DNA of 64,000 bases from an uncultured Gemmatimonadota bacterium (GCA_964626665.1 CAZVGK010000010.1:1-64000), one strand, 5' to 3'. Shown: positions 2,428 through 32,612, counted from the first letter of the stretch. Notes: generated by a model not told the origin, from the letters alone. Program-made: numbers and translations.

Positions 2428-2560
2428 AGATGAGGGATAGAAACCACTCCACTTTGAGGCGGGTCCGTGCATTGTGATCGGCAAAGCCTTTAACCTGTTG
2501 AGACGAGATTATAGTCCCGTCCGAAGGGGGGACTAAACTTTCATACACTTAACAGCTATT

Positions 2561-2591
2561 AAGGGAGGAGAGAAGGGGCTCCTCCCTTTTT
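2561..2591 (+). terminator. Probable intrinsic terminator
   Basis: aagggaggag-loop-ctcctccctt stem followed by a T-run, downstream of the first peptidase gene. Confidence 0.6.
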
Positions 2592-2654
2592 GATTGGGCA
2601 GCTAAGACTGGTGAGCGTGTGCGGTTCCCAGCCACATGGATAATGAAAAATCAC

Positions 2655-2683
2655 TTGCCTAAAGGCATAAAAATAGTTAGATT
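2655..2683 (+). promoter_or_regulatory. Putative sigma70 promoter of the second C25 gene
   Basis: TTGCCT-17bp-TAGATT, ending about 45 nt upstream of the ATG at 2728. Confidence 0.45.
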
Positions 2684-2727
2684 CAAAGAGCAGAGATTAG
2701 AACTCCAACTACAGGAAGAGAGGAACA

Positions 2728-4998
2728 ATGAGGAAATACCATAAAGTATCTGTTTCCGTGGGCATAGAGGTGCTTCTGTTGATAAGTTTGTTCTTTACAG
2801 CCTCCAAACTGGAGGCGGAGAACTTAACTATCACGGTCAATGCGGGTGATTATCAGATCACCGATGGGGATAGAGGGCAGCGGATTGAGATGGAGGGGTT
2901 TGGCTATTTGATGGAACCAGGCAAGCCGTTGCTTCCGGCTAAGAACTTCTTGATTGCCCTGCCGCCAGGGAGCAGGGTTCAATCGGTTCAAGTCGAAGGG
3001 ATTGGGGCCCAGCAATTGCCCGGCACATACCGTATCGTTTCGGCCCCACCGATTATGCCTTTAGCTGATCCGGTCCAATACCCTAAGCTTGTTGAGAAGA
3101 TGCAAGGTGAGTGGCAAAGAAACAAGGAAGCAGTTTACTCATCGGATCAGGCCTACCCTAAGGAAAGGGGAAAACTCAGAGGTTCAGGCACATTGCGAAA
3201 ATACTCCTATGCTTCCGTCTGCTTCTATCCTTTTAGCTATCATCCACAGTCAGGAAGGCTGATCCATTATAATTGTGCCCAGATCAAAGTCAGATACCGT
3301 TTGCCCTCTCCGGGCAGCTTAGAAGCTCAGAGGGTGGAAGAGATGAAGTGGGATACCGTGGCCGATGAGCGAGCCTCAAAGCTGTTTGTCAATTACCAGG
3401 AAGTGAAGGGGTTGTATCAGTTCAGAGGATCAAGGCCTAAGGCCTGGCAGCAGACCCACGACTATGTAATTATCACTACGAGTGAGCTATTGAACGCCAT
3501 TGCCTCTTCCGACTTTGTCACCTGGAAGACTTCTCTGGGATATAATGTAAGAATAGTCCTCACTACTGACACCGAGATTACCAGTCAACCCGGTGGTGAT
3601 CTTGCCCAAAAGATCCGCAACTTTCTCAGAGCCTATTATGGGCTCTGGGGCATTGAGTATGTGCTTCTTGTTGGCGATTATGCAACCGTTCCTATGCGCT
3701 ACTGTTATCCGGCAACCTCTACTTCCGGTGGTGAGGTGCCTACTGACTATTACTATGCAGATTTGTCCAATGCAGACACTCTCTCCTGGGATTCAGATAG
3801 AGATGGGTTCTGCGGGGAGTACGGCCAGGATAATCCTGATTTCTCAGCCGAAGTTTATGTTGGCAGAGTTCCCACTAATGATGTCTCTCGGATAACATAT
3901 GCTCTTGATAAAATAGTGAATTTTGAACAGGATACAGGACCCTGGAAGGATAATGCTTTGCATGGTGGAGCGATTTTGTTTTATGCTAACGAAGACTCCA
4001 ACGGCCGGGATGTGATAGACGGAGCAAGTTGTCTTGATGCAATCGAAACCGACTTTATGAGTGGCTGGACAATAAGCCACTACAGCGAACAGGAAGGTCT
4101 GGCTCCATCTGCATATGATTGGAATGCACTGACTGAAGATACATTTACAAGTGATTGGCGAAATAGCCAATATGGTGTAGTAAACTGGGCTGCTCATGGT
4201 GCGCCAACATCAATCGGGCGGGTTATCTGGTCGTGGGACGATGGGGATAGCATCCCCGAACATGAGCCAGGTGAGTTAACTTGGGGAAGCTTCCTGAGTA
4301 CTTCCTCTTATCTAGAAGATGATTATCCGTCTATTGTCTTCGCTGTCTCCTGCAATGTCGGTCATCCGGAAGGAGACGGCCATCTTGGAATTGATTTGTT
4401 GACTAAACCTGGTTTTGGATCCTCGGTAGGAGTTCTCAGTGCGACTCGTGGGGCTGCTGTTTCAGTGGATTGGTCGGTCTATCATGCTGGTGCAGAGGCA
4501 ATGTGCTATGAATTCAATCATTACATGATCAATGGGCCAGGTGGATCTGAGAAGGTCGGCGAAGCCCTCTATAATTCAAAATCCTATGTTCATTATAATT
4601 TTGGTTGGGATCATTATTATGAATACCAGAATATGTTTGATTACAATCTTTATGGAGACCCGGCGCTGGTAAGAGGAGGAATCTCTGTTGGGGCAGAAAC
4701 CGAAAGGTTGGTGGAATTGCCCAGATCCTTTCTCTTAATGCAGAATTACCCGAATCCTTTCAACTCCACCACCCTGATCCGCTACGCCCTTCCAGCGGTT
4801 AGCGGTCAGCAGTCAGTCGTCAGGTTGGAGGTTTATAACATCCTGGGCCAGAAGGTAGCCACTCTGGCGGAAGGGAGACAGAAAGCCGGATACAAGACGG
4901 CCAGGTGGGACGCCAGTTCCTTCTCCAGCGGGATCTACTTTTATAGGCTTAAGGCTGGGGATTTTACAAAGACGAGGAAGATGATTTTGTTGAAGTAG
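2728..4998 (+). CDS. C25 (gingipain-like) cysteine peptidase paralog with T9SS type-A-like CTD
   Basis: Same architecture as 151..2427. Catalytic WAAHG and VSCNVG, NLYGDP, CTD. Confidence 0.85.
2740..3710 (+). repeat. ~970-bp near-identical direct repeat, copy 2
   Basis: Matches 163-1133. Confidence 0.9.
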
Positions 4999-12383: not shown

Positions 12384-12425
12384 AATCGGTTGTCGTTTTG
12401 GTTGTCGTTTTTTGAGGGAGTAAGT

Positions 12426-14375
12426 ATGAATAAACTCAGCAATGAAGAAATTGCGCTTATAACCAAATGTCTGAAAGAAGGTAAGCCCCTTCCTGATAGT
12501 TACAGATATATTATCCCTTTCGAAACAAAGAAGGAGTATGAGCTTACTTATGACGGCAAAGAGCGAGAGGAGGACATCCTTGCAGACACAATGGCGGTTC
12601 CTCTGCAACCGGTAAAGACATTCGGCAATGGTAATAATGCTTGGACTAACAAACTGATATTTGGGGATAATCTTCAAGTTCTCAAAGCCCTAATGGATGA
12701 TCCTGAGGTTTATGATAAAAACACAGGTAGGGGAAAAGTAAGGCTAATTTATATTGATCCTCCTTTTGCTACAAAACAGGAATTCAGAGGAAGTCAGGAT
12801 CAGAAGGCTTATCAAGACAAGATCGTAGGTGCACAGTTCTTAGAATTTCTGAGAAAAAGGCTTGTCTTCTTAAGAGAGCTCTTGGCTGATGATGGAAGCA
12901 TTTATGTGCATTTGGATTGGAAGAAAGGACATTATGTAAAAACACTAATGGATGAGATGTTTGGAGAACACAAATTTTTGAACGAAGTTATTTGGTGTTA
13001 TCGGGAAAGAGAAACCTCTACACGCTTTTATAACCGCAAGCATGAAGTAATCTTTTTCTATTGTAAATCAGATAGTTATCCATTTAATTTTAATGAAATA
13101 AGAGACGAATATAGTCAAGTAACTAAAGCTAAGTTTAAATATAAAGATGAAGAGGGATACTATAGGATTCGAGCTAAAGATGGGAGAAGCGATGTAGAAG
13201 AAGGAGTCGATACATATAGGCAATATATAGGGAAAGGAGTACTACCTCGTGATTGGACAATTATTCCATTCATTAATCAAGCTTCGACTGAGCGCGTGGG
13301 TTTCCCTACTCAGAAACCAGAAAGACTCTTAGAACGTATCATCAAAGCTTCCTCCAATCCAGGTGACATTGTCCTCGATGCCTTTGCTGGTTCCGGCACA
13401 ACAGGAGCAGTAGCAGAAAAACTTGGTAGAAGATGGATAATGATTGATTGCGGTAAATTAGCCATTTATACTATGCAAAAGAGATTGCTCAATTTAAGAG
13501 AAGAAATTGGAAACCGTGGAAAACCCCTAAAGCCAAAGCCTTTCACCCTCTATAATGCTGGGCTTTATGATTACAAGATGGTCAAAGACCTGCCCTGGGA
13601 TAAATACAGGGAATTTGTGCTTAAACTTTTCCAATGCCGGGATGAACCACATAGGATTGCTGGAATAGAATTAGACGGCTATCTTGGAGCAGATTCTGTG
13701 ATGGTTTTCAACTATAAAAAGTATGAGGATGTTATTTTGGATCGGGGATTTATTGATGACCTTCATAACATCCTTGGTGACAAAGTAGGCTATAAGTTCT
13801 TTATTATTGCTCCAGCAGCAAGCGTTACATTCTTTGAGGATTATATTGAAAAGCCCCGACAAAGTCGGGGTAAAGTCCAGACAAAATATTTTGCCCTGAG
13901 GATTCCGTATTCTATAATTGATGAACTCCACCGGAAGGGATTTAGCCACATCAAACAACCTATAAGAGAAGCAGATGTCAACGATACGATTGATGCGGTG
14001 GGATTCGATTTTATCCAAATTCCCGATGTGGAATGCGACTACTTTGTTGAATCCAAAAAGGGACAACTTAAAATAGACAAAAGCAATAAGGAAGCAGTGA
14101 TCAAGATCAAGAAGTTTAAAAGCAACATCTTATCAAAGAAACCTCTTAAATTCGAGAACAGAGAAACTCTTTCAATGGTAATGGTGGATTATGATTATAA
14201 TGGCCGTGTATTTGATTTTGATGATGTCTTTTATGCTGAAGATTTAAAGAAACAAGACTGGGAAGTCCGTTTTGATGCTAATAAAATAAACGGCCAGATG
14301 ATGACTATCTATATCGATATTTTTGGGAACGAGAAAAGGGAAGTAAAAAAGCTAAAGGATTTTAGGAAAAAGTGA
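12426..14375 (+). CDS. mod: Type III restriction-modification methyltransferase (Mod)
   Basis: IFGDNL, YIDPPF (motif IV), [16 protein letters not shown] (beta-class order) and a long C-terminal extension. ATG 12426 follows RBS GAGGGAG. Confidence 0.88.
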
Positions 14376-14540
14376 TAAATGTCTAAATTTTGTGTGAAAC
14401 AATAAGTTCACAAATAACCGAGTTAATTTTGTCACGAAACAAAATGGTTCGTTGTTTAGATAACTATGTTGCTGGGCACATGGAATATTTAGATTTAAAG
14501 ACAAGCCATCTAAAAATTTAGGGTTAAGGAGGAATCTGCA

Positions 14541-16214
14541 ATGAAAAAGGATCTCCAAATACCAAGAGAAGGGACCTTACCTATAAAAGTTAGTAAAGAT
14601 GTAGTTAAGCACTTAAGTATTGGGTTATACAGAAATTTTGCTTTGGCTGTCAAGGAGCTTATTTCGAACTCATATGATGCAGGCGCTACAGAAGTCAAGA
14701 TAAAATTAGATTTGGAGAATAGAAGAATCATAATCAGGGATAATGGCAGGGGGATGGACTATAACGAATTTAAAGAGGAATATCTCCGAATTGGTTTTTA
14801 CAAAGAGCCAGCAAAATCTGCAGATGAATTGGGACGTATGCGAATAGGCACATTTGGGATAGGGTTTCTAGCTCCATTACCCTACTGCAAAATAATGCGG
14901 GTAATCACTAAGAAAAGAGGCAGTAATACAACCATTGAAGCTACTGTAAATGCTGAAAATTTCTTTAGAAAGGGGACTTGGGATATTAAAAAAGAGAAGG
15001 TTCCTTTTAAAACTTATGATAGTGATTTACCCAAAAAAGAGGGAGAGACTATAATAGTTCTTGAGGATATTGAACCTCAGGTTGCTGAAGAGTTAAAAAG
15101 AGACGTTAGGGGAAAAAGATCTATCGAGCACAGTGGATTTGGGAAATTTAGATGGACACTATGTCAATATGCGCCTATTCAATTTTCTTCTGATAGAAAG
15201 AATTTGAGAGATTTCTTTGATGTACCAAACAGAGTTCCGATGAGATTATGGCTTGATGGTGAAGAACTTTTTAGAAATGTACCGGAAGGAGTTAAAATTT
15301 TGGAAAGGGGTGAAGAAAAATTTGGTGACATCTTCCTGAGATATGTCATAATGAGCCCTTATGACCCAATTAAACCAGAAGAGGCTCGAGGTCTTCAAGT
15401 TAGATTAAGAGATGTGGCAATAGGTTTCCCAAGAGACTTTGATGTTACGAAATTAGGTAGAGTCCTTGGAAAGTTGAATATGATTTGTGGTGAAGTTCAT
15501 ATAGTGAAGGGATTGGATAGTGCTTTGATGGTGAATAGAGACCAGTTTAACTATACCCAAGAAGTTGCTAATATGTATAAATTTTTCCAAGGCAAACTGA
15601 CAAAATGGAATGATAGACTCTATAATCAAATAGAAGAAGATAGAAAGGTTTATGATGCCTTAGGGGATCTAAAAAATGATGATGAAATTGTAGAGGGGTT
15701 AAAAAAGGTAGAGATTATTCATTTCTCCAAAGAAAGATTAAGATTCCAAGAAAAACCTATCACTAAAACAAGAAAAACTAAAGCTGAGATACCGTCAAAA
15801 AAGATAGTTAAGGTCTTATCAGAAACTAAGAAAAAGGATTATAAGATAATTCCCAAAAAAGGCGAGATATCCTCTGAAGAATCACCTATAAGGATATTAC
15901 CCGAAAAGAAGTCGATAGAAGTATACGAAGACCACCCTGCTTTTGTTGAAACTATAAAGATAGGAGAAAGAGAATTTAGAGTTGAATATGATGAATGGGA
16001 CCATAGTAAAACACCATATTCAATTTGTAGATTGCATGATGGGGAAAATAAGGTAGTATTCAATACATCACATCCGCTATTTAAAAGCAAATTAAGTGAT
16101 GAGATCATAAAACAATTGTCGTTGGGTATAGTCCTTATCCTAAAAGATAAAGAAGATGGGGAAGAGCTAATAGAGAAACTTAACCACCTGCTTGAAGATA
16201 CATTTAAGGGATAG
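14541..16214 (+). CDS. GHKL (MORC/HSP90-like) ATPase
   Basis: Bergerat-fold motifs ELISNSYDA, DNGRGM and GTFGIGF; C-terminal N.SHPLF; RBS AAGGAGG. Confidence 0.8.
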   Translation: MKKDLQIPREGTLPIKVSKDVVKHLSIGLYRNFALAVKELISNSYDAGATEVKIKLDLENRRIIIRDNGRGMDYNEFKEEYLRIGFYKEPAKSADELGRMRIGTFGIGFLAPLPYCKIMRVITKKRGSNTTIEATVNAENFFRKGTWDIKKEKVPFKTYDSDLPKKEGETIIVLEDIEPQVAEELKRDVRGKRSIEHSGFGKFRWTLCQYAPIQFSSDRKNLRDFFDVPNRVPMRLWLDGEELFRNVPEGVKILERGEEKFGDIFLRYVIMSPYDPIKPEEARGLQVRLRDVAIGFPRDFDVTKLGRVLGKLNMICGEVHIVKGLDSALMVNRDQFNYTQEVANMYKFFQGKLTKWNDRLYNQIEEDRKVYDALGDLKNDDEIVEGLKKVEIIHFSKERLRFQEKPITKTRKTKAEIPSKKIVKVLSETKKKDYKIIPKKGEISSEESPIRILPEKKSIEVYEDHPAFVETIKIGEREFRVEYDEWDHSKTPYSICRLHDGENKVVFNTSHPLFKSKLSDEIIKQLSLGIVLILKDKEDGEELIEKLNHLLEDTFKG

Positions 16215-16220
16215 AGGATA

Positions 16221-16958
16221 ATGACCGAGATTGTTTTAATAAAAGACAGACTGATAGATAAGCTATGGATTCCAATTGCTATTGCTGGTGGTAAAATCTT
16301 ATACTCCCGCCGAAAGAAAAATAAAAGAATGAAAGTGCTGACACTTACACACCATAGTAATTGTCGAGAAACAGACGAATTTATAAAAAATAAACTAACA
16401 AATAAGGAATTAATAGTTGGGTGGAATAAAGGAACTACTGAAGCTATACGATTAGAGGGTGAAAGATTAGGATCAGTTGTTGGACCCTATGTTTATGAAG
16501 ATTCTATAATCGGGGGGATGCCCGATGTTCAGAATAAATTTCCTTTTGATATACTCAACTTAGATTTTTCTTCTCAAAATCCTGAATCAGAAGGTGAAAG
16601 AGGAGAAAGAGAAATCCTTAGTATAGAACATACAATTAATCTGCAAGCAGATAAGAGAAATGATGGAATGGTTTTGATATATACAACACTTTTGGATTCT
16701 AATCCATTGAATCTAAATGAGATAAAACAGAGTTCTGATAATATCGGAATTCAAGGATGGGGTGGATTATCTATTGATAGACTACCTTACAATACAACAG
16801 ATTATCGTGAGAAAATCAGATGCTTGAAAGAGATACTCCAGCAGATATTCTCCAAATATCAGTATGAAAACATTGAAGATTTTGATCCATTATGTATAGG
16901 ACTATCTAATGGTTCTGGATACGTTTTATCGATTGGGGTATTATTAATAAGGAGTTGA
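16221..16958 (+). CDS. Hypothetical protein, possibly a degenerate Rossmann/SAM-MTase-like fold
   Basis: 245-aa ORF with an RBS, in an operon. FPFDILNLDF resembles strand 4 of class I MTases (weak). Confidence 0.55.
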   Translation: MTEIVLIKDRLIDKLWIPIAIAGGKILYSRRKKNKRMKVLTLTHHSNCRETDEFIKNKLTNKELIVGWNKGTTEAIRLEGERLGSVVGPYVYEDSIIGGMPDVQNKFPFDILNLDFSSQNPESEGERGEREILSIEHTINLQADKRNDGMVLIYTTLLDSNPLNLNEIKQSSDNIGIQGWGGLSIDRLPYNTTDYREKIRCLKEILQQIFSKYQYENIEDFDPLCIGLSNGSGYVLSIGVLLIRS

Positions 16959-17734
16959 GTGATATGACAATCTTTAAGGTAAGTGATCTCCCAACTGAAA
17001 CAAGAACTACTCACGAAAGTCAGAACAAATGGCGCAGAGAAAATTGGCAAAAAACATTAAAAGAACATAAACAAGATATTGAAGGACTTTTAAAGAAAAT
17101 TAGCTTATTTGACATCTGGTCTAACAAGTTGCAACACAATGATGTTGCTGTAAAATTAATTCCAGAAATTTTTATGGATGCTTATATTTCGATTCATTTT
17201 GCTGGTTATGGTCTTTATAAATATGCTCACATGTGTTTACGTTCTGAAATGGAAACAGCACTACGCTTGGTATTTTTCTCAACCCATAAAATTGAGTTTG
17301 AATGGTGGTCTGAAGGGAATGAATGGTACCGAGAAGAACTAAATTGGCCAGATGTTTGGGGCAAAGGATACAACTATTTTAGACAATTGGATGAAATAAA
17401 GGAATTTGAAAAACTGTGTGAAGATAATAAGAAATTATTTGGTGGGAGTAAAGTAGGTGTAAGTCGAGTCCACAAAGAACTATCAAAATTTATACATAGT
17501 GGTGCTGGTCATTTCCAAACAAGGGCAGATAGAGTTTCACCAAAACACGATCCAGGTGAATTCAGGAGATGGTATAAAACTTATGAAAAAGTACAAGCTT
17601 ATATCCATACAATATTTGCATTAGGATTTGCAGATAAATTTAAAAATATGCCTACCACTCGAAAAAATAAGATTTTAGATACTGGCATGGACGAATATTA
17701 TAAAGAAAAAGTGAAACAAATCTTGGGGTTATAG
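16955..17734 (+). CDS. Hypothetical alpha-helical protein, possibly a divergent HEPN-like domain
   Basis: Translationally coupled to the upstream gene. LRSEMETAL and KELSKFIHS patterns (weak). Confidence 0.55.
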   Translation: MSDMTIFKVSDLPTETRTTHESQNKWRRENWQKTLKEHKQDIEGLLKKISLFDIWSNKLQHNDVAVKLIPEIFMDAYISIHFAGYGLYKYAHMCLRSEMETALRLVFFSTHKIEFEWWSEGNEWYREELNWPDVWGKGYNYFRQLDEIKEFEKLCEDNKKLFGGSKVGVSRVHKELSKFIHSGAGHFQTRADRVSPKHDPGEFRRWYKTYEKVQAYIHTIFALGFADKFKNMPTTRKNKILDTGMDEYYKEKVKQILGL

Positions 17735-17737
17735 ATT

Positions 17738-18856
17738 ATGAAAAACAATATTATCAAGAGTGTAGAACATGGTTCAAATTATAAAATAACAATGGATAAT
17801 CACATTAAAACAGCGCCTTCAACGAGATATCAGGGAAGTAAACGACGCATTCTACCTTGGTTATATGAAAATTTAAGAGATTTAAAATTTAAGGCTGTCT
17901 TGGATGGATTTGGCGGGACTGCAAGCGTCAGTTATTTATTTAAATTAATGGGTAAAAAAGTAACTTTTAATGATATACTTTTATCAAATTACCAAACGGG
18001 GATTGCGCTTGTCGAAAATGATTCAGTAAAATTAGATCAAAGCGATATAGAGTTTCTACTTCACGAAAGTGGATTTGAGTATCCGACATTCATACAGGAT
18101 ACATTTAAAGGAATTTATTATTTAGATATAGAGAATAGATGGCTCGATATGGTTTCATTAAATATAGAAAAGTTATCTGAAAAATATAAGGGAGAAATAT
18201 TAAGAAAGAAAAAGGCTTTAGCATATCACATTTTATTTCAAGCTTGTTTGTGTAAACGGCCTTTTAACCTATTTCACAGAAAAAATCTTTATTTAAGAAC
18301 AGCGAATATCAAAAGAAGTTTTGGAAATAAGAAGACGTGGGATACAAATTTTAAAATTTTGTTTCTTCGGGTTCACAATGAAATTTCACAAAAAATTTTT
18401 TCTAATGGTCTAAACAATAAAGCAGTATGCAAAGACATAATGAAGATAAAGAATCGAAACTTTGATCTTGTTTATTTAGATCCTCCATATACAAGACCTA
18501 ATGAAAAATTTCCAAAGGACTACCATTCTCTGTATCATTTTCTTGAGGGATTAGTTGTTTATCATAATTGGCCTAAAAAAATAGATTGGAATACCAAGAA
18601 TAGACGACTAATTAATGGGAAAAATGATTGGAACAAGGGTTCCTTAGAAAAAAACTTTAATCAGCTTTTTAAGAAATTTCAAGATTCTATAATCGTTCTC
18701 TCATATGGGGATCCTGGAACTCCATCTATACAAAAAATTAAAGAACTCCTACGACAGTACAAATCTAAAATAAATATCGTGAGAAGAGAATACAAATACA
18801 AACTAAATCATAATAATGGGGATGGAATGCACGAAGTCTTGATAATTGGAAGGTAA
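17738..18856 (+). CDS. DNA adenine methyltransferase (D12/Dam-FokI-like, alpha class)
   Basis: RYQGSK, then DGFGGTASVS (motif I) before YLDPPY (motif IV). Confidence 0.85.
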   Translation: MKNNIIKSVEHGSNYKITMDNHIKTAPSTRYQGSKRRILPWLYENLRDLKFKAVLDGFGGTASVSYLFKLMGKKVTFNDILLSNYQTGIALVENDSVKLDQSDIEFLLHESGFEYPTFIQDTFKGIYYLDIENRWLDMVSLNIEKLSEKYKGEILRKKKALAYHILFQACLCKRPFNLFHRKNLYLRTANIKRSFGNKKTWDTNFKILFLRVHNEISQKIFSNGLNNKAVCKDIMKIKNRNFDLVYLDPPYTRPNEKFPKDYHSLYHFLEGLVVYHNWPKKIDWNTKNRRLINGKNDWNKGSLEKNFNQLFKKFQDSIIVLSYGDPGTPSIQKIKELLRQYKSKINIVRREYKYKLNHNNGDGMHEVLIIGR

Positions 18857-19016
18857 AGATTAAGAGAAGAATTGATTTAGAACTAATTGAATCATATAAA
18901 TTTAAGTCTGAGTCCGAATTTAGCAAAGATTATATAATCTGTTTTAAATGGGTGATAAAACGCTAAAGAATTTAGGAATAGAGAGTAATAATCTTATTGT
19001 TTCACACAAAATTTAG

Positions 19017-19133
19017 GATCTCGTTTTGAAGGTTTCTCCAAAGATTGACCCTGAAAAATTTGATGTAAATAAGTATGAGCCTTTCTGGATGCCCTTTGTG
19101 GAGAGAAGGGGGGGCAGAAAATGGCTATAAGGG
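19017..19133 (+). pseudogene. Relic of a res gene 5' end
   Basis: Translates to DLVLKVSPKIDPEKFDVNKYEPF; the intact Res has DLVLRVSPNIDPEKFDINKYEPF. Then frameshifted and truncated. Confidence 0.85.
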
Positions 19134-19159
19134 AGTTGAGTCTTTATTAGGAGGTTGAA

Positions 19160-20320
19160 ATGGATAAAGAGGAATTAACAGAGATAATAGAAAAAGGGGA
19201 AGATTCGTTTACCGAATTCAAGGAGGAAAAGGTTCATCCTGATGATTTGGCTGCTGAGATGGTTGCTTTTGCCAATACTGAAGGCGGAAAAATACTATTG
19301 GGAGTTTCTGATAAAAAAGAGATTAAAGGTCTATCAATACCCGATAAAGAAATGCAGAGGGCTGAGAATATCTCTCATAATAATTGTGAACCGTCACTTG
19401 CTGTAAGTATAGAAAAAGTTAAGGTCAATAAAAAAATGATCTTATGTATTTACATATCCAAAGGGCCAGAAAGACCTTATAGGACAAATAGAGGCGTATA
19501 TTATATCAGGACAAGTTCTGGTAGAAGGCAAGCCACAAGAGAAGAACTTCTGAGGCTCTATCAGGCAACTCGTTCCATTTATTATGATGAACTGCCCGTG
19601 CCTGCAACTTCTGTTGATGAATTGGACATACTTTATTTCAGAAGATTTTTTGAAAGTTTTTACCAGACAAAGATTGAAGATATGAACGCTGACTTGAATA
19701 AGCTATTAGAGAACATGAAGGTTTTAACATGGATGGATGAGAAGTTAGTCTTTACTGTCGGGGGTTATCTTTTATTTGGATTAAATCCGCAGAAAGAGTT
19801 TCCGTTTGGCAAAATTACAATTGCGAAATTTGATGGTAATGAGATAGGAGAGGAATTTGAGAAAAAGGACTTGGAAGGAAAACTTGTTGAACAGATTGAT
19901 GGTGCAGACAGAGTCTTAAATCAATATCTTAAAACAAAGGTTAAGATTGAAGGATTTGGAAATGAATTAAAATTTGAAATTCCAAAGGGAGTATTGAGAG
20001 AAGCTGTAGTCAATGCCATTGCCCATCGTGATTATCATATCCCTTCTCAAATTCGCATCTTCATATTTGATAACAGATTGGAGATTATGAGCCCCGGAAA
20101 ATTACCCAACACAGTTACCCTGGAAAACATAAAGTTAGGTGTGCATTCAGAACGGAATCAACTCATTGTTTCCTATCTTGCAAAGATGGGCTATATGACC
20201 CAGATTGGAACTGGTGTTCCCAGAATGATCAGGCTTCTAAAAGAGCATACTGGCAAAGAACCTGAATTTGAAGAGCGAGACCATCAATTCACAGTGAGAA
20301 TCTGGAGACCGGATTTATGA
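19160..20320 (+). CDS. Schlafen/AlbA_2 domain protein with C-terminal HATPase_c_4-like domain
   Basis: GEDSFTEFKE, AFANTEGG.I.LGV, REAVVNAIAHRDY, SPGKLP and GTGVPR. Confidence 0.85.
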   Translation: MDKEELTEIIEKGEDSFTEFKEEKVHPDDLAAEMVAFANTEGGKILLGVSDKKEIKGLSIPDKEMQRAENISHNNCEPSLAVSIEKVKVNKKMILCIYISKGPERPYRTNRGVYYIRTSSGRRQATREELLRLYQATRSIYYDELPVPATSVDELDILYFRRFFESFYQTKIEDMNADLNKLLENMKVLTWMDEKLVFTVGGYLLFGLNPQKEFPFGKITIAKFDGNEIGEEFEKKDLEGKLVEQIDGADRVLNQYLKTKVKIEGFGNELKFEIPKGVLREAVVNAIAHRDYHIPSQIRIFIFDNRLEIMSPGKLPNTVTLENIKLGVHSERNQLIVSYLAKMGYMTQIGTGVPRMIRLLKEHTGKEPEFEERDHQFTVRIWRPDL

Positions 20321-22815
20321 TAGTAGATAAAAAGGTATTCAAAAATCAGGACCTTGTTCTTAGGGTTTCTCCAAATATTGATCCTGAGAAGTTTGATATA
20401 AATAAGTATGAGCCATTTATGGATGCTACTTGTAGGGAGAGGGAGTATCAGAAAGAGGCTATAAGGGTTACTTTGCGATACCTTTTGGGAGGTCAATATA
20501 ATGACCTTAAGGAATTGGCAGAAGAGAATTACCGCCAGAATCCAGTTCTGCAGGAAAGATACGGGTCATTAGAAGATTTTTATCAGCATTTACAGCTACC
20601 TGACAAGCTTTCCTGCACCATAGATTTAGCCACTGCCACTGGTAAGAGCTATGTTCTTTATGGGATTGCTCGAATTATGCTCGCCAAGGGAACCGTAGAT
20701 CAAGTATTGGTGCTTTGCCCTTCCAACACAATAGAAACAGGTTTAACCGAAAAATTCCGCTCATTATCAGCCGATGGGACTTTGAAGGATTTGCTATCAG
20801 ATTCTGCGGAGATTCTAAACCCCAGGATCATTAATGCCACTCAGACAATCCAGAAAGGCGATATTTGCATAGAAAATATCCATGCCACTTATCAACGGAC
20901 CAAATCTGCCATAGAAGATAGTCTTATAGGCAAAGGCGAAAGAACACTTGTGTTAAATGACGAAGTTCATCACATGGCCAATCCTCCCGCTCGTGATATG
21001 GCTATAAAGAAATGGAAAGAATTTTTGCTTAATCCTAAATACGATTTCAGATACATAGTCGGTGATTCAGGTACCTGTTATGTTGACAATGATTATTTTG
21101 CAGATGTGATTTATCGGTTTTCCTTGAGGGATTCGATTGAGAAAAAGTTTGTAAAAACGATTGACTATGTGGCTGAGGATGTTTCTCATTCAAAACCCGA
21201 AAAATTCCAAAAGATTTACGATAATCACATCCAGAATAAAATGGTGAAATATCGATTGATCAAACCCCTCACGATCTTAGTTACTAAAAATATCAGTGCT
21301 TGTAAAAAGCTAACAGAAGAGTTAATTGGATTCATAGCAGAGAAAGAGAGAATAAGCAAAGAGGTCGCCTCAAATAAGGTTTTGATTGTGACCTCAGCTC
21401 GTGAGCACAAAGATAATATAGCAAAGCTTAAGAACGTTGATGATAAGGACAATCCCATTGAATGGATTACATCAGTCAGCATGCTTTCCGAAGGATGGGA
21501 TGTGCAAAATGTGTGTCAGATTGTTCCCCACGAGGAAAGAGCTTTTAATTCCAAATTGCTCATTGCGCAAGTGCTGGGGAGAGGGTTGAGAATACCACCG
21601 AAATATAAAGGAGAACAACCTGTTGTTACTGTATTCAACCATGATAAGTGGTCAAGTAGCATCAAGCACTTGGTCAACGAAGTTCTTGAAATAGAGAAAA
21701 GGATTCATAGCCGCGTTATTGCTAAGGATGAGAATTACAATTTTAAGCTCCACAACATAAGGTATGACAAGACACCAGAAGTTTTAGAAACTCCAAAAGT
21801 TGCCGAGTATAAGTTTAGCAAGGGGTTTTCTCTAAGTAGCGAAGACCAAGTGAAAATAATAGAGGAGGAGACCATTTACGAAAGGGCAGTCGTAGAAAAA
21901 CAGCGTGAAAAGAAAACCCTCATTGAATTTAAAGTGTATTCAGCGGAGGAAATTGCTCAGGTTGTCCATAGCAGATATAGAAGTTGGGATATGGATGAAG
22001 GCACTGATTATGCGCGGAAGTATCCCTATGACAAAATCCTATCGATCATAAAAAACTCTCTGAGAGATAAGGGAAATTTGATTAACGATAAAGGCAGACA
22101 GAAGCTACTACAAGGGTTCGGAGTAACAAGAAGAAAAAAGAGTAAAAGGCTGAGATATAAAATTGAGGCCGAGGATCTCTCTTCGATTGATACTGCAGAT
22201 GTCAAGAAAAGTAGTTTGGGAATTGGGGCTTTAAGAAGAGATGGCAGTATTTTTTATGATGATTACTCTCTAAAAACTGGAGAAGATGAGGACAAAAAGT
22301 TATTAAAAAAGGTTATTGAAATGTTTGATGACGGACAACTGCACAGCGCTTCTTTAATTAAGGTTGAAAACTCATATAATTTTAAAACACCACTAAATAT
22401 TATTTTTGCCTCATATAAACCAGAGAGGGATTTCATTAAGAGGCTGGTTAAGGAAGAAAATGCCAGGGGAATTGATTCATGGATAAAATCTCCTGATGTT
22501 GGTTTCTATAGTGTGGAATATTCCTGGAGAAAAGGGGAACATCCCAAACAGGGGAGTTTTAATCCTGACTTTTTCATAAAGATTGGAGGAGACACATTGG
22601 TAGTTGAAATTAAGGCTGATTTAGATGTCTCTGATGAGAATAGGGCCAAATTAAGATATGCAGAAGAGCACTTCAATCGTCTAAATGCTTTACAGTCAAA
22701 ATGCAGATATTATTTCAAGTTCCTATCTCCGCGAAGTTTTGACCTCTTTTTTCAATGTTTAAGAGAGAGACAATATCAGAATTTCAAGTCTGAAATAGAG
22801 GCTTCTTTAGAATGA
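20317..22815 (+). CDS. res: Type III restriction enzyme Res subunit (SF2 helicase + PD-(D/E)xK nuclease)
   Basis: Walker A ATATGKS, DEVHH, LSEGWD, QVLGRGLR, and C-terminal PDF...VEIK. Confidence 0.88.
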   Translation: MIVDKKVFKNQDLVLRVSPNIDPEKFDINKYEPFMDATCREREYQKEAIRVTLRYLLGGQYNDLKELAEENYRQNPVLQERYGSLEDFYQHLQLPDKLSCTIDLATATGKSYVLYGIARIMLAKGTVDQVLVLCPSNTIETGLTEKFRSLSADGTLKDLLSDSAEILNPRIINATQTIQKGDICIENIHATYQRTKSAIEDSLIGKGERTLVLNDEVHHMANPPARDMAIKKWKEFLLNPKYDFRYIVGDSGTCYVDNDYFADVIYRFSLRDSIEKKFVKTIDYVAEDVSHSKPEKFQKIYDNHIQNKMVKYRLIKPLTILVTKNISACKKLTEELIGFIAEKERISKEVASNKVLIVTSAREHKDNIAKLKNVDDKDNPIEWITSVSMLSEGWDVQNVCQIVPHEERAFNSKLLIAQVLGRGLRIPPKYKGEQPVVTVFNHDKWSSSIKHLVNEVLEIEKRIHSRVIAKDENYNFKLHNIRYDKTPEVLETPKVAEYKFSKGFSLSSEDQVKIIEEETIYERAVVEKQREKKTLIEFKVYSAEEIAQVVHSRYRSWDMDEGTDYARKYPYDKILSIIKNSLRDKGNLINDKGRQKLLQGFGVTRRKKSKRLRYKIEAEDLSSIDTADVKKSSLGIGALRRDGSIFYDDYSLKTGEDEDKKLLKKVIEMFDDGQLHSASLIKVENSYNFKTPLNIIFASYKPERDFIKRLVKEENARGIDSWIKSPDVGFYSVEYSWRKGEHPKQGSFNPDFFIKIGGDTLVVEIKADLDVSDENRAKLRYAEEHFNRLNALQSKCRYYFKFLSPRSFDLFFQCLRERQYQNFKSEIEASLE

Positions 22816-23018
22816 TTAACTTTGCCGGGTAGTGGAAACCTGGATCCAGATACTGGGTTAGGGAGCTTAGATAAGCTCTATAATGCCGTAACCGTTTTTA
22901 CTTGCTGCCGATCCCAGAAGGCAAAGACGGTTATGGGGAGGGGAATGAGCACTGAAGATACATCCTTATTAAAAAAGCAAAGGCGTAGATGATTGCACTG
23001 CAAAAAGGCTGAAGGTTG

Positions 23019-23094
23019 GGTAGCCGCAACCTTCAGGTTGCGTAAGTAGTTGGTTTATCGAGCTCCTTTTCGCAGGCTAAAGCCTGCGGCTACC
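23019..23094. repeat. Inverted pair of GTAG-type REP palindromes
   Basis: ggtagccgcaaccttcaggttgcg ... cgcaggctaaagcctgcggctacc. The second unit recurs at ~44177-44198, and a shortened form occurs at ~42815-42850. Confidence 0.7.
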
Positions 23095-23119
23095 GATTTT
23101 AGTTTTTGTAGTAGAATAG

Positions 23120-24070: not shown

Positions 24071-26092
24071 ATGGAAAAAGACCTCTTTGAGAAAAAAGAA
24101 GCGCAGATGGTTAGCAAACACAACATTCTCGAAAACTATCTTGAGCCGTGGATAATAATCTTTTCCTCTGCGGGACAAAAATGGGCAAAGAAACTATATT
24201 ATGTGGATGCCTTTGCTGGAACGGGAAGATTTGCTACCGGAGAAGAGGGTTCTCCAGTAATTGGAGCAAGACTTTTGAGGCATTACTGGAAACCGCAAAT
24301 ATACTACTGTTGTATATGCATAGAAAAGGAAAGCAAACGAGTAAAGGAACTTGAAAGTGAATTAAATCAATTTCGAGATAAAGTGGATATAAAAATTTAC
24401 CCCGGTGAATTTGATGATAAAACGGATGAAGTGATTAACGAAATTGGTAATCATCCTGCCTTTTTCTTGATTGATCCTGAAGGGTTTTCAGGGATGAGCT
24501 TTTTGTCTATTGAAAAAATTCTTGAGTTACCGCATAAAGAAGTTCTAATTAACTTTCAATATAATGCAGTACAACGCTGGTTGAAAGCAAAAAAGGTGGG
24601 AAAAACAATTACTGATTTATTTGGAACTGACAAGTGGATAGAGATTCCCCGAAAGGGACTCCAGAAAAGCGAAAAGGAAAGAGCATTAGTCGAACTTTAT
24701 AAATCCCAGTTGAGAGCAAAGGGATATTATGTCTGGTACTTCAGGAATAAAATCCCAGCAAAGAATAGAACATTCTACTATCTTGTTTACGCTACCAGGA
24801 ACCTCACAGGTTTTAAGATAATGAAGGGAGTGATTTTTAAGGAAGAAAGTAGAAGATATTTTGAGCCAAATTTATTTGAGGAAGTAGATTTTACGGAGTT
24901 TCAAAACGAATTGTTAAGAAAGTATAAAGGAACTAAGGTTTTGTATAAAGAAGTTTTGGTGTATGTTTTACAGGAAACGAACTATCTGGCAGGGGACCTG
25001 GATTTAGTTATAAAAAATGTGAGAATTAAAAAGGAATATAACCCAAAAGAAAGGAATAACTTCTGGCTTGTTTTCCCTATGTCTTACGGAGCATTGAATA
25101 CTCGTAAATTCCATATTCGGGAGAGTGATATTTCTTTTGTATCTCCTAAAACTATTACAAGAGGGCCAAGAATCTTATACAATGAGGAAGATTTAGTAAG
25201 GCAGGTTGCTGATGGCTCCATCATTAAACGATTTGATAAAACTCCTTATCCAGTTAAGCCCACGGATGTTGTTTGTCCTCATTTCCTTGAGTTGAAATGG
25301 GCTTATGGGTGTCCGTTTAATTGTAGCTGGTGTTACTTGAAGGGCACTTTTCGTTTTAGGCCGGAGGGGATAAAACCTGCTTATAAACCTATGGAAAAGG
25401 TAAAATTGCATACGGAGACATTTCTTCAGAAAGTGAAGATTCCAGAGATTCTTAATACTGGTGAGATAGCCGATTCCTTAATGAAAGAGAATGGTGATAG
25501 TCCATTCTCTAAATTCATCATCCCCATCTTTGAAACTCAGAACATGCACAAGGTTTTGTTTGTTACCAAATCATCGAATATAAAGAACTTTTTAGAGATG
25601 CCCTCTCATAGGCAGGTTATAGTGAGTTTCAGTCTTAATGCTTTCCCGGTAGCAGAGAGGTGGGAGAAAGGGGCTCCCCCTGTTCCAAAACGAATCGAGG
25701 CGGCGAAGAAAGTCGCCGACGCAGGCTATGAAGTCAGGATAAGAATTGACCCAATGATACCAGTGGAAAACTGGAAGGAATATTATATCCAACTGATAGA
25801 CGAGATATTCACGAGATTTGTTCCTGAAAGAATTACCTTGGGTTCTTTAAGAGGGCTTCAGAGCACAATCAACGGCACTAATGACACCAGTTGGGTTAAA
25901 TATCTAAAAGAAAGCTCAAACTGGGGGAGAAAAATAGATTTTACCACAAGATGTAGAATCTACAAAACCATTATTGGGTATCTGAGTGACAAATACAATT
26001 ATTCCCATATAGCCTTGTGCAAGGAAACAAAGGCGATGTGGGAGAAATTAGGGATGGATTGGACCCAGATTAGATGTAATTGCGTATGGTAG
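24071..26092 (+). CDS. Fusion of a three-Cys-motif partner (TcmP-like, MTase fold) and a spore-photoproduct-lyase-like radical SAM domain
   Basis: N-half: KH.IL.NYL, YVDAFAGTG, GSP, FLIDP.G, EVLINF and YYLVYATRN..G..IMK. C-half: CPFNCSWC (CxxxCxxC), TGEIADS, FVTKS and IRIDPMIP. Confidence 0.75.
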   Translation: MEKDLFEKKEAQMVSKHNILENYLEPWIIIFSSAGQKWAKKLYYVDAFAGTGRFATGEEGSPVIGARLLRHYWKPQIYYCCICIEKESKRVKELESELNQFRDKVDIKIYPGEFDDKTDEVINEIGNHPAFFLIDPEGFSGMSFLSIEKILELPHKEVLINFQYNAVQRWLKAKKVGKTITDLFGTDKWIEIPRKGLQKSEKERALVELYKSQLRAKGYYVWYFRNKIPAKNRTFYYLVYATRNLTGFKIMKGVIFKEESRRYFEPNLFEEVDFTEFQNELLRKYKGTKVLYKEVLVYVLQETNYLAGDLDLVIKNVRIKKEYNPKERNNFWLVFPMSYGALNTRKFHIRESDISFVSPKTITRGPRILYNEEDLVRQVADGSIIKRFDKTPYPVKPTDVVCPHFLELKWAYGCPFNCSWCYLKGTFRFRPEGIKPAYKPMEKVKLHTETFLQKVKIPEILNTGEIADSLMKENGDSPFSKFIIPIFETQNMHKVLFVTKSSNIKNFLEMPSHRQVIVSFSLNAFPVAERWEKGAPPVPKRIEAAKKVADAGYEVRIRIDPMIPVENWKEYYIQLIDEIFTRFVPERITLGSLRGLQSTINGTNDTSWVKYLKESSNWGRKIDFTTRCRIYKTIIGYLSDKYNYSHIALCKETKAMWEKLGMDWTQIRCNCVW

Positions 26093-30206: not shown

Positions 30207-30352
30207 TAACAGTTCACCACGGACTCTCACGGAATGGACCACCAGCAATGGTCAATTAGCAATTAACAATTAGCAAGTTAAAATGAAATAAAGCCAGAAA
30301 ATCTGAGGTGTAAAGTTCCATTGATAATTGTCAATTGTTAATTGGTCATTTC
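30207..30352 (+). repeat. ~145-bp intergenic element with internal inverted heptamer arrays (second copy at 32000-32143)
   Basis: taacagttcaccacgg...aatggtcaatt(agcaatt/aacaatt)...cagaaaatc.tgaggtg...cattgataattg, shared with 32000-32143. Confidence 0.8.
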
Positions 30353-30369
30353 GTATCTGCTCAGGGTTA

Positions 30370-31203
30370 TCAGCTCTGAATTTTATGCAGATAATCCCAG
30401 AGAACCATACTCAAACGGGAGAAATCCTCCAGGCTGAGAACCTCCCCCCTCAGGGAAGGGTCAATCCCGGCCCGGGAGAAGACCTCATCCTCCTTCCCCG
30501 GGGGAAGGAGCTCCTTTAAAGCATTTTTGATAGTTTTTCTCCTCTTTCCAAATGCCCCCTTGACTAACTTCCTGAAGAAGAGCTCATCTGGAAGGGGAAC
30601 GGCTGGTTTTTCCCGCACCATTAACCTTAAGACAGTAGCTTCCACTTTGGGCCTGGGCCGGAAGGAGGAAGGGGAGAGGTCAAACAGCTTAGTGGGGCGG
30701 AAGTATAGTTGGGAGATAACCGATAGGGAGCTATAGTCCTTCCCTCCCGGAGGTGAAGTAACCCTCTTGGCCACTTCCTTCTGTAGGGTTAAGACAATTT
30801 GCTTGATCCTCTCCCTCTGAGTAATCAGCTTCTCTATAACCGGAGAGGTAAGATGATAGGGTATGTTTCCCACAAGCTTCAGATTTCTCCCCCAAGGGGA
30901 GAGATCAAATTTTAAGAAGTCCTCACAGAAGATGAGAAGCTTCTCAGACTTTAGGTATTCCTCGAGGATCTGATAGAGACGATGGTCTATCTCTACCCCG
31001 ATCACCTGAGCTCCATACTTAAGGAGTTCTCTGGTGAGGAGACCACTCCCCGGTCCGATCTCCACTACCACATCCTGGGGGACAAGTTGCAGGTTTTGCG
31101 CAATTTTTTGGGCGGCTGCCCGGTTGATGAGGAAATTCTGGCCTAAACTCCTTTTGGGGAGAAACCTTAGTCCCAGTGAGGGGAGCAGAATTCCCCTCCT
31201 CAT
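30370..31203 (-). CDS. rsmA: 16S rRNA m6(2)A1518/1519 dimethyltransferase
   Basis: KRSLGQNFL, VEIGPGSG, GNIPY, QKEVA and KRRKT. Confidence 0.95.
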   Translation of the reverse strand: MRRGILLPSLGLRFLPKRSLGQNFLINRAAAQKIAQNLQLVPQDVVVEIGPGSGLLTRELLKYGAQVIGVEIDHRLYQILEEYLKSEKLLIFCEDFLKFDLSPWGRNLKLVGNIPYHLTSPVIEKLITQRERIKQIVLTLQKEVAKRVTSPPGGKDYSSLSVISQLYFRPTKLFDLSPSSFRPRPKVEATVLRLMVREKPAVPLPDELFFRKLVKGAFGKRRKTIKNALKELLPPGKEDEVFSRAGIDPSLRGEVLSLEDFSRLSMVLWDYLHKIQS

Positions 31204-31999: not shown

Positions 32000-32176
32000 T
32001 AACAGTCCACCACGGAATCTCACGGAGTGGACCAACATCAATGGTCAATTAACAATTAGCAAGTTAAAATGAAATGAAGTCAGAAAATCCTGAGGTGCAT
32101 GCCATTTTTCATTGATAATTGTTCATTAATCATTGACCATTTCTTCTTCTGTCCGTGGTTATAAGTTGTGAACTAT
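32000..32176 (+). repeat. Second copy of the 30207 element
   Basis: Direct repeat of 30207-30352, ending in ccgtggtt...gtgaacta. Confidence 0.8.
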
Positions 32177-32612
32177 CTGCAAAAAAAGTAAATTTGCCCC
32201 TCCTGTCAAGCTAAATAAAATGAACCGAGGGCGGGGAATAGCTGAACGGTCAGGTGCTCCAATGGTCTCCTCCCCTTTGAGTTCTATCAAATGAGGCACC
32301 AAAAAGGGGAAGCTACCGGAATCCTCCAGTGACTTCCCCTTTATGGAGTGAGGTTTTCAGATGTTTTAGATTCCAAACTTGGCCGTCTGCGGCGGGGTTT
32401 TTTTGACAGGATAACAGGATTTACATGATTTTTATCCCTTTCATCCTGTCAATCCTGTCCAAGAAGTGGGAATTCCTCTACATTCAAGCTGATAGCCGAC
32501 CGCTGACCTCAATCTACGATCCACGAGCAACGAACCCTGGCTGTGGACTTCCCCATTTTCCATTTTCTTACTTCCTGAATCAGGTGTTTGCTAACCGACC
32601 TTTGCTTCCTGC

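Follow-up and report, generated by a model that had tools for sequence, protein, structure and literature searches.

A four-gene defence-type cassette between inward-facing insertion sequence ends, most likely the remains of a decayed IS-flanked transposon

Tn6330 (ISApl1-mcr-1-ISApl1) is known to lose one or both of its flanking insertion sequence (IS) copies, leaving vestiges and a stabilised cargo, according to part of the published account (PMC5821093). GHKL (paraMORC) ATPases have been placed in predicted restriction-modification (R-M) operons by Iyer, Abhiman and Aravind in 2008, in the portion of that work used here (PMC2292703). We describe a locus that is close to both. It lies in 64,000 nucleotides (nt) of DNA from an uncultured Gemmatimonadota bacterium of sediment (GCA_964626665.1, CAZVGK010000010.1:1-64000). 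We call this whole stretch the window and count positions from its first letter. Between a Type III-like mod gene and the relic of a res gene there is a cassette of four genes, and it is bracketed by a perfect 24-base-pair (bp) inverted repeat. A reading of the DNA by itself, below the sequence-only reading, took the repeat for the ends of a non-autonomous transposon. We argue that the arms are two right ends of an IS3-family IS that face inward, and that the locus is most likely what is left of a decayed IS-flanked transposon, not a new kind of transposase-less element.

In its architecture the locus is closest to a decayed composite transposon. If that is its history, it has in common with the "double-deletion" forms of Tn6330 a cargo that lay between two IS copies, the later loss of those copies, vestiges of IS ends and an immobile cargo. 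As far as the part of the account used here describes it, Tn6330 has direct copies of the IS30-family ISApl1 and a resistance cargo, whereas inverted IS3-family copies and a defence cargo are implied here (PMC5821093).

The cargo is closest to the paraMORC-type GHKL R-M operons. Both have a GHKL ATPase gene beside a DNA adenine methylase gene, in a compact and laterally mobile operon within a defence neighbourhood. Compared with the operons covered in the portion of PMC2292703 used here, the cassette is without a helicase or a recognisable restriction-fold nuclease, and its fixed partners are a methyltransferase-fold protein and a HEPN-like protein. Transposons that are like miniature inverted-repeat transposable elements, or are otherwise non-autonomous and bounded by terminal inverted repeats (TIRs), also have IS-derived inverted repeats around a gene block without a transposase. 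The locus differs from them in that its termini point inward and that no target duplication, second copy or empty site was seen in the searches reported below.

The repeat and its parent insertion sequence

The pair consists of CTAAATTTTGTGTGAAACAATAAG at 14383-14406 and its exact reverse complement at 18993-19016. In an inverted-repeat search of the region no pair is longer: the arms are 24 nt, 100% complementary and separated by 4586 nt. When up to 3 mismatches are allowed, the 24-mer has 2 matches in the window, which are the two arms, against 0.00 expected from 100 shuffles. The bases just outside the arms are T and G. The 24-mer is partly self-complementary, with 12/24 positions equal to its own reverse complement by hand count. 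There are 3 window matches to the pattern AATTTTGT-N3/4-AAACAA where 0 are expected, at the two arms and at 14425-14442. The last of these belongs to a second, degenerate IS-end-like motif at 14425-14445, a near-palindrome (ATTTTGT-N5-ACAAAAT) whose core ATTT..GAAACA is common to both ends of the IS described next. This motif may be left from an older IS end, or it may be an operator. The perfect repeat claimed by the sequence-only reading is thus real by exact match and shuffle test, and so is its degenerate inner copy, which had been placed at about 14421-14441 and not at its actual position.

A third copy of this type is present in the genome on contig C4 (35546-35575). It is 29/30 identical to window 14377-14406, and the match of the left arm to the IS end runs 6 nt outward (AAATGT) on the mod side. 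An exact 23-mer scan of metagenome contigs returned 9 stretches. Three of them are this genome's own DNA at 100% identity (L018 and L021 are the window locus and L024 is the C4 copy). In the other six, from three data sets (L016, L017, L019, L020, L022 and L023), 63 conserved nt end in ...GTGTGAAACAATAAG and then run into six unrelated flanks. The divergence starts directly after ...CAATAAG in 6/6 independent IS copies. The genes in these flanks are unremarkable ones of the same clade, with 84-94% identity to this genome wherever the two can be compared. With six different flanks, the IS is multi-copy in close relatives. Upstream of the repeat there is identity to the IS in L017 up to the contig ends (107/107 in L016, 99/99 in L019, 126/126 in L020 and 126/126 in L022), the signature of a multi-copy element that breaks the assembly. 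L017 and L023 contain the whole IS, about 1449 bp (736-2184) and about 1436 bp. It has an OrfA with HTH_Tnp_1 and an OrfB with rve (rve, rve_3); in L017 the E-values are 6.4e-8 for OrfA (PF01527) and 1.6e-21 for OrfB (PF00665). Since the 63 nt end at one place before six different flanks, and L017 and L023 hold the complete IS, the 24-mer is the tip of the right end (IRR, the right inverted repeat) of an IS of about 1.45 kb.

The IS belongs to the IS3 family. A 390-amino-acid (aa) product encoded on contig C46 of this genome scores 178.1 bits on the NCBIfam IS3 model NF033516 (cutoff 160) and matches positions 2-366 of 369. OrfB of L017 alone has 151.9 bits, which is under that cutoff. The IS630 model gives the IS transposase 42-44 bits against a cutoff of 100, and its nearest plasmid-borne relatives, about 33% identical, are annotated as IS3 family. 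The repeat does not come from IS630/Tc1 or IS5, and with an IS3-family parent the proposed logic of TA/CTAG targets does not apply. The letters C-TA...TA-G at the borders, which had been read as leaving one CTAG site once the element is removed, are IS sequence itself (...GTCTAAATTT in all copies) and no target duplication. What stands of the earlier proposal is that the repeat matches the end of an autonomous IS that occurs elsewhere and is also present, truncated, in this genome; what falls is the family.

With the IS3 family the parent shares its two frames (HTH_Tnp_1 in OrfA, rve in OrfB), its length and its imperfect terminal repeats. The two ends have TGTCTA-ATTT...TGAAACA and TTTTAGGTTAGG in common, and the similarity between them spans about 50 nt. 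IS3-family tips are usually 5'-TG...CA-3' and come with a 3-4-bp target duplication. In this respect the parent IS differs: its tips read CT(A/T)T...ATAAG (the left tip is placed only to within a few nt), and no target duplication is recognised around either of the two full copies in L017 and L023. Left ends are seen in 4 contexts (L017, L023, C46 and contig C21). They read (C)TATCGTA(C/G)TGTTTCAG(C/T)AAAATATAG... and are unlike the 24-mer.

The orientation of the arms can be read from the IS copies. The IS body is 5' of the 24-mer in each of them, with the flank starting after ...AATAAG. Judged by these copies, the left arm has its cut terminus at 14406|14407, facing the cassette, and what was IS interior points to mod, as the extra AAATGT match confirms. 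The cut terminus of the right arm is at 18992|18993, and here the former interior points to the res relic. Both arms are of right-end type and inverted, because the left ends in the 4 contexts differ from the 24-mer. The cassette is outside both IS ends, and the arms are inside-out for a transposon that ends at 14383 and 19016. Outward TIRs at these positions are disfavoured by 6/6 IS copies, which end on the opposite side of the 24-mer. At its variable position the 24-mer has C in the six metagenome copies, G in the C4 copy and T in both window arms. Since both arms carry T, they come from the same IS lineage or copy.

The stubs sit exactly where cargo and host meet. The left one lies within 5 nt of the mod stop and the right one directly against codon 12 of the res relic. 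The last 10 nt of the right arm resemble res at the matching place (CAAAATTTAG vs CAAAAATCAG). As a hint only, this would suit microhomology-mediated deletion or a preference of the IS for end-like targets.

In this genome the decayed parent IS is represented by one truncated copy and by ends that stand alone. The whole IS as query gave 4 matches (Table 1), with the 24-nt right stub of the window too short to be listed, and 0 matches in two genomes of the same genus (G001 and G002). The 390-aa transposase gene on C46 (9564-10736) is in a single frame, and its IS is without the last ~220 nt, including the right end. The transposase may still be made while its IS cannot move by itself. The repeat was absent from 60 other genomes searched (2 of the same genus, 4 of the same phylum and 54 sharing only the domain), and a scan of species-genome contigs for the exact 23-mer and of viral contigs for a 21-mer gave 0 matches each; these were exact or near-exact searches that would miss diverged copies.

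Some observations on single IS copies are added here. The solo 63-nt right end on C4 stops 2 nt before the ATG of a 509-aa gene and is about 0.9 kb downstream of a tRNA-Asn. The spacer also holds what is by eye a putative GatB/YqeY-type C-terminal gene fragment. A comparison of the three repeat loci with Rfam found the tRNA-Asn near the C4 copy only and nothing at the repeats. In L017 the IS sits within a 210-aa open reading frame (ORF; 127-759, +) with cysteine pairs and no Pfam hit, which by eye looks like part of another transposase gene in this related organism. If so, the arrangement would be one of nested IS insertions.

How the ends came to flank the cassette

Direct observations are the repeat, its identity with an IS end, its orientation, the family and decay of the IS, the res relic, and a cassette that is portable without repeats of this kind. 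To join them we infer two full IS copies, a transposition event and two deletions. The four-gene R-M-like module would have been flanked by two inverted copies of the IS in a related bacterium. This composite-like unit would then have inserted within the first ~12 codons of res, a gene that began with a GTG overlapping the mod stop. Finally both IS bodies would have been deleted along with their outer ends and a few host bases, which would fix the cargo between inward-facing stubs. We give about an even chance to this history, a composite-transposon-like unit of two inverted IS copies with inward right ends that later lost both IS bodies. Stubs placed exactly at the junctions of cargo and host are what two flanking IS copies would leave behind. 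On this reading the perfect 24-bp inverted repeat is simply the shorter of two stubs, 30 nt on the left and 24 nt on the right.

Several points weigh against such a history. The parent IS has unusual tips for its family, and its two full copies are without a recognisable duplication. The outer IS ends are missing from the window, so a target duplication cannot be checked there either. Two separate deletions are needed, each with its limits inside the inner end of an IS and close to the former outer end. Among the loci retrieved there is no form with IS, cassette and IS, and none with even one full IS beside the cassette. The motif at 14425-14445 is not explained by a composite unit. It must be added that Tn6330 is a precedent for the process only, with its direct copies of an IS30-family element. 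The register-shift pattern of Tn6330, in which the excised length equals the IS length, was considered and fits poorly: it predicts about 50 nt of lost host sequence, and about 27 nt are inferred from the res paralogue.

It is unlikely that two IS copies inserted independently and in inverted orientation beside a cassette that had arrived otherwise, and that both then decayed to stubs. The IS has been active in the lineage, with six insertion sites in relatives, this genome is full of IS remnants, and the motif at 14425-14445 hints at repeated hits at this spot. However, two insertions and two deletions, four events in all, would have to fall at two exact spots. It also leaves unexplained why the stubs coincide to 0-5 nt with the boundary between the low-GC cargo and res or mod. 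A live pair of inward IRRs is quite unlikely. Here the ends would be a substrate for an IS3 transposase acting in trans, such as that of C46, and their junction either captured a circular cassette or can delete the cassette precisely. IS3-type elements move through reactive junctions of abutted ends. The termini are oriented as expected for a junction that integrated a circle, and the 390-aa transposase still encoded in the genome covers nearly the whole IS3 model. Against this, the cassette starts with TTC and ends with AAT, so that the expected 3-4-bp direct duplication is missing. Only 24-30 nt are left per end, compared with the ~50 nt over which the IS ends are similar, and contigs from 4 runs contain no deletion junction, although rare variants are invisible in them. 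We consider it very unlikely that the pair is a working "docking junction" at which an IS3-type transposase acting in trans captures or drops circular defence cassettes in the R-M operon. If it were true, this would be transposase-driven cassette exchange at a fixed chromosomal site.

The non-autonomous cargo transposon of the sequence-only reading, with outward 24-bp TIRs at 14383 and 19016, insertion at TA/CTAG and mobilisation in trans, has very little probability left. It does account for a perfect repeat exactly at the borders of the cargo. The genome holds a transposase of the cognate family, and the partial self-complementarity of the 24-mer means that its use in reverse is not strictly impossible. 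It is disfavoured by orientation, IS family, duplication and copy number. The parent IS ends on the other side of the 24-mer, the left match continues 6 nt past the supposed tip, and the family does not target TA or CTAG. No other copy was found among the 60 genomes (0/60), as an exact match in the species-genome contigs or in the viral contigs, and the metagenome contigs hold only this same locus. The predicted empty site, GTG ATA AAT GTC TAG GAT CTC, does keep the reading frame. Its TAG is in frame, and it counts 3 codons where intact res has 9 (from "ATG ATA" to "GAC CTT"). With an in-frame stop and six codons fewer than the res paralogue, the proposed empty site does not restore the 5' end of res. 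Highly improbable, lastly, is an invertible segment or an operator pair, bound by a recombinase or a regulator that flips or controls the cassette and thereby the read-through from mod to res. The arms are inverted, with a near-palindromic core (ATTTTGT-N5-ACAA), and a better palindrome lies 100 nt upstream of the first gene. There is no gene for a recombinase, an integrase or a small helix-turn-helix (HTH) regulator in the cassette or in the island of 10-27 kb around it. The contigs of 4/4 runs have a single arrangement, which is weak evidence since rare variants are lost from contigs, the motif is missing from homologous cassettes, and the sequence is already accounted for as an IS end. Inversion, which had been named as the alternative to a transposon, is thus not borne out.

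Other alleles of the locus were looked for in the 60 relatives and in the species-genome, viral and metagenome contigs, and no empty site, inverted allele or second insertion was found. Genomes G001-G004 and G006 have no mod-res locus to compare, only 71-72% identity over about 100 nt. This genome is present in salt-marsh samples. The stretch is contained in 24 public runs, of which 4 were compared (X1, X20, X21 and X22), all as assembler contigs from which rare variants drop out. The junctions are crossed only in the window arrangement: by 14257-14848 and 18791-19265 in X21, 18138-19197 in X20, 14359-14620 in X22 and the whole stretch in X1. X22 was a candidate for an empty-site allele (0.25 share). 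It has low depth instead, with pieces inside the cassette as well (14359-14620 and 17053-17335). A joint in X22 from 13768 to 20436 has a short side of 24 letters and a different depth, and we treat it as another organism or a chance match.

If the composite-like unit is the right history, the locus is a natural example, in an uncultured sediment bacterium, of IS ferrying a defence module into an existing R-M operon and of IS decay then locking the module in. The same path of birth and demise is documented for the mcr-1 transposon in the part of its literature used here (PMC5821093). There is also a caution in it. A perfect terminal inverted repeat around genes need not mark a mobile unit, and the orientation of the ends needs checking against the parent IS. 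The cargo is of interest of its own, as a widespread four-gene module with a GHKL ATPase and a Dam-type methylase but without a described mechanism.

The cassette and its relatives

Exactly four co-oriented ORFs are enclosed by the arms (Table 1). Their GC content is 32.8%, compared with about 38% for mod, res and a Schlafen-like gene next to it and 48.9% for the genome. The sequence-only reading described four AT-rich co-oriented genes between the repeats and called the unit transposase-less; ORF calls and composition bear out the one, and the other agrees with the absence of a transposase or recombinase fold from the four cassette products (0/4).

Table 1. Features of the window and copies of the parent IS elsewhere in the genome (contigs C4, C21 and C46)
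Feature	Position	Strand	Evidence
Type III-like mod gene, 661 aa, N6_N4_Mtase	12390..14375	+	Pfam PF01555 E 1.3e-48; PADLOC MTase_III and MTase_II models
GTG ATA, putative start of the res relic, overlapping the mod stop (TGA, 14373-14375)	14372..14377	+	intact res begins ATG ATA
Left stub, last 30 nt of IS3-family IRR (includes left arm)	14377..14406	+	29/30 identical to C4:35546-35575; 97% identical to L017 IS, query positions 1426-1455; whole-IS search
Degenerate IS-end-like motif, near-palindrome	14425..14445	+	3 window matches vs 0 expected
GHKL (MutL/MORC-like) ATPase, 557 aa	14541..16214	+	PF13589 HATPase_c_3 E 2.6e-22
Rossmann, class-I methyltransferase-like fold protein, 245 aa, PP_RS20740-like	16221..16958	+	Atlas clusters/structure rows; AF2 pLDDT 79
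All-helical HEPN-like protein, 259 aa, invariant R104-x6-H111	16955..17734	+	AF2 pLDDT 92; VIA HEPN matches
Dam-type (D12 class) N6-adenine DNA methyltransferase, 372 aa	17738..18856	+	PF02086 E 9.6e-16; PADLOC MTase_II E 1.9e-51
Right stub, last 24 nt of the same IS right end (terminus at 18992|18993)	18993..19016	-	IRR-type
5' relic of res paralogue (codons ~12-50), frameshifted after ...KYEPF	19017..19140	+	~80% nt identity to 20340-20467
Schlafen/AlbA_2 and HATPase_c_4 protein, 386 aa, between relic and intact res	19160..20320	+	PF04326 E 4.3e-26; PF13749 E 3.9e-24
Intact Type III-like res gene, 832 aa	20317..22815	+	PF04851 ResIII E 8.6e-13; PADLOC REase_III
Truncated IS, without last ~220 nt	C46:9604-10832		whole-IS search
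80-nt solo IS left end	C21:54358-54437		whole-IS search
63-nt solo IS right end	C4:35513-35575		whole-IS search

Only the N-terminus of the GHKL ATPase resembles the restriction-enzyme model BbrUII/HgiDII, and the score is below the cutoff (92 vs 550 bits). Its matches to the PADLOC and NCBIfam models of MzaB likewise cover the N-terminus only, with an NCBIfam score far under the cutoff. The 245-aa protein has weak Foldseek matches to S-adenosylmethionine methyltransferases (E 4e-4, TM about 0.3-0.4). In the 259-aa protein R104-x6-H111 is invariant in 36/36 aligned sequences. The top VIA structural matches of this protein are HEPN domains (2hsb with Z 8.1, 3o10 with Z 8.0 and 1ufb with Z 7.4), which are modest values for a helical bundle. 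Foldseek returned no match to its model at E <= 0.001, so the HEPN lead comes from the wide VIA search only. On the strength of these matches and the invariant motif, the protein is a candidate nuclease partner. A DUF5677 label was rejected for it: only the relative P0093 matches, and under the cutoff (25.1 vs 27.1 bits). No restriction-fold match was found among the cassette proteins. In a scan of the cassette, promoters and terminators were no more frequent than in shuffled sequence.

For the 259-aa protein, metagenomes yielded 109 clusters of homologues, none of them with a name; identity reaches 78%, and the closest homologues (P0005-P0015) are 71-78% identical. Searches of plasmids, phages and viral contigs gave no relative of the protein. 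Among 185,579 species genomes, a profile scan returned 8 loci (L008-L015), whose hosts are Pseudomonadota, Desulfobacteraceae, Aenigmatarchaeota, Methanophagales, Thorarchaeota, Woesearchaeota, Micrarchaeota and Methanoperedens. In 5/8 loci, from bacteria and archaea (L008, L009, L010, L013 and L014), the set of four is complete and has the order of the window. L011 has the same gene order and is cut by the contig end, and L012 and L015 have the methylase on the opposite strand.

None of the five complete loci has a repeat comparable to that of the window, and homologous cassettes without the repeats were one part of what the sequence-only reading had named as refuting its transposon. Within 500 nt of both cassette ends there is no exact inverted repeat of at least 10 nt in L008, L009 or L010 (in L009 and L010 the sequence downstream extends for only 211 and 439 nt). 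The longest ones in the same range are 13 and 10 nt in L013 and 12 nt in L014, compared with 24 nt in the window. The five complete cassettes have no shared upstream motif or operator. The neighbours of the homologous cassettes are R-M-type genes (N6_N4 methylases, HNH, ResIII/SNF2, GmrSD, D12 methylase) or housekeeping genes, and no transposases. The cassette is a portable unit that is normally without such repeats. The suggestion that the four genes are a defence-type module, laterally mobile and without a transposase, is supported.

An N6_N4 methylase lies within about 5 kb of the cassette in the window and in 4/8 loci (L010, L012, L013 and L014). The methylase or restriction neighbours are at 2-5573 in L014, 2688-4356 in L010, 6911-9177 in L012 and 11959-14727 in L013. 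In L014 the cassette begins 10 nt after a pair of mod-like and ResIII/SNF2 genes. The Woesearchaeota contig L013 also has, at 287-1216, a gene about 4 kb away from the cassette whose product is related, at 26% identity, to a 673-aa radical-SAM/SPL-like protein of the island described below (window 24071-26092).

The surrounding restriction-modification locus

The 5' end of the intact res gene (20340-20467) has a counterpart at window 19007-19133, with about 80% identity. The relic reads in frame as DLVLKVSPKIDPEKFDVNKYEPF, and then a one-base deletion shifts the frame. The res relic that had been noticed at 19017 is therefore real. The cassette does sit in an R-M locus, where it lies in the first ~12 codons of the relic, which overlaps the mod stop.

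The order of the locus is mod, then this diverged (~80% at the nt level) and frameshifted duplicate of the res 5' end (19007-19140 vs 20340-20470), then the Schlafen/AlbA_2-HATPase_c_4 gene and a complete res. This order suggests a past recombination in which the original res gave way to a Schlafen-like gene and a res from another lineage.

The cassette lies in a low-GC island at roughly 10.1-27 kb of the window. The other genes of the island encode RadC, an HTH protein, a DprA-like protein, the radical-SAM/SPL-like protein and a HEPN protein. Dispersed intergenic repeats of ~100-190 nt occur at 22989-23115, 30207-30389 and 32000-32181, each with 16-29 BLAST hits across the genome contigs (the self-match included). 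One of them is inside the island, between res and the DprA-like gene. At window 151-4998 two paralogous genes for C25-type peptidases (758 and 756 aa) stand in tandem, both with type IX secretion sorting tails.

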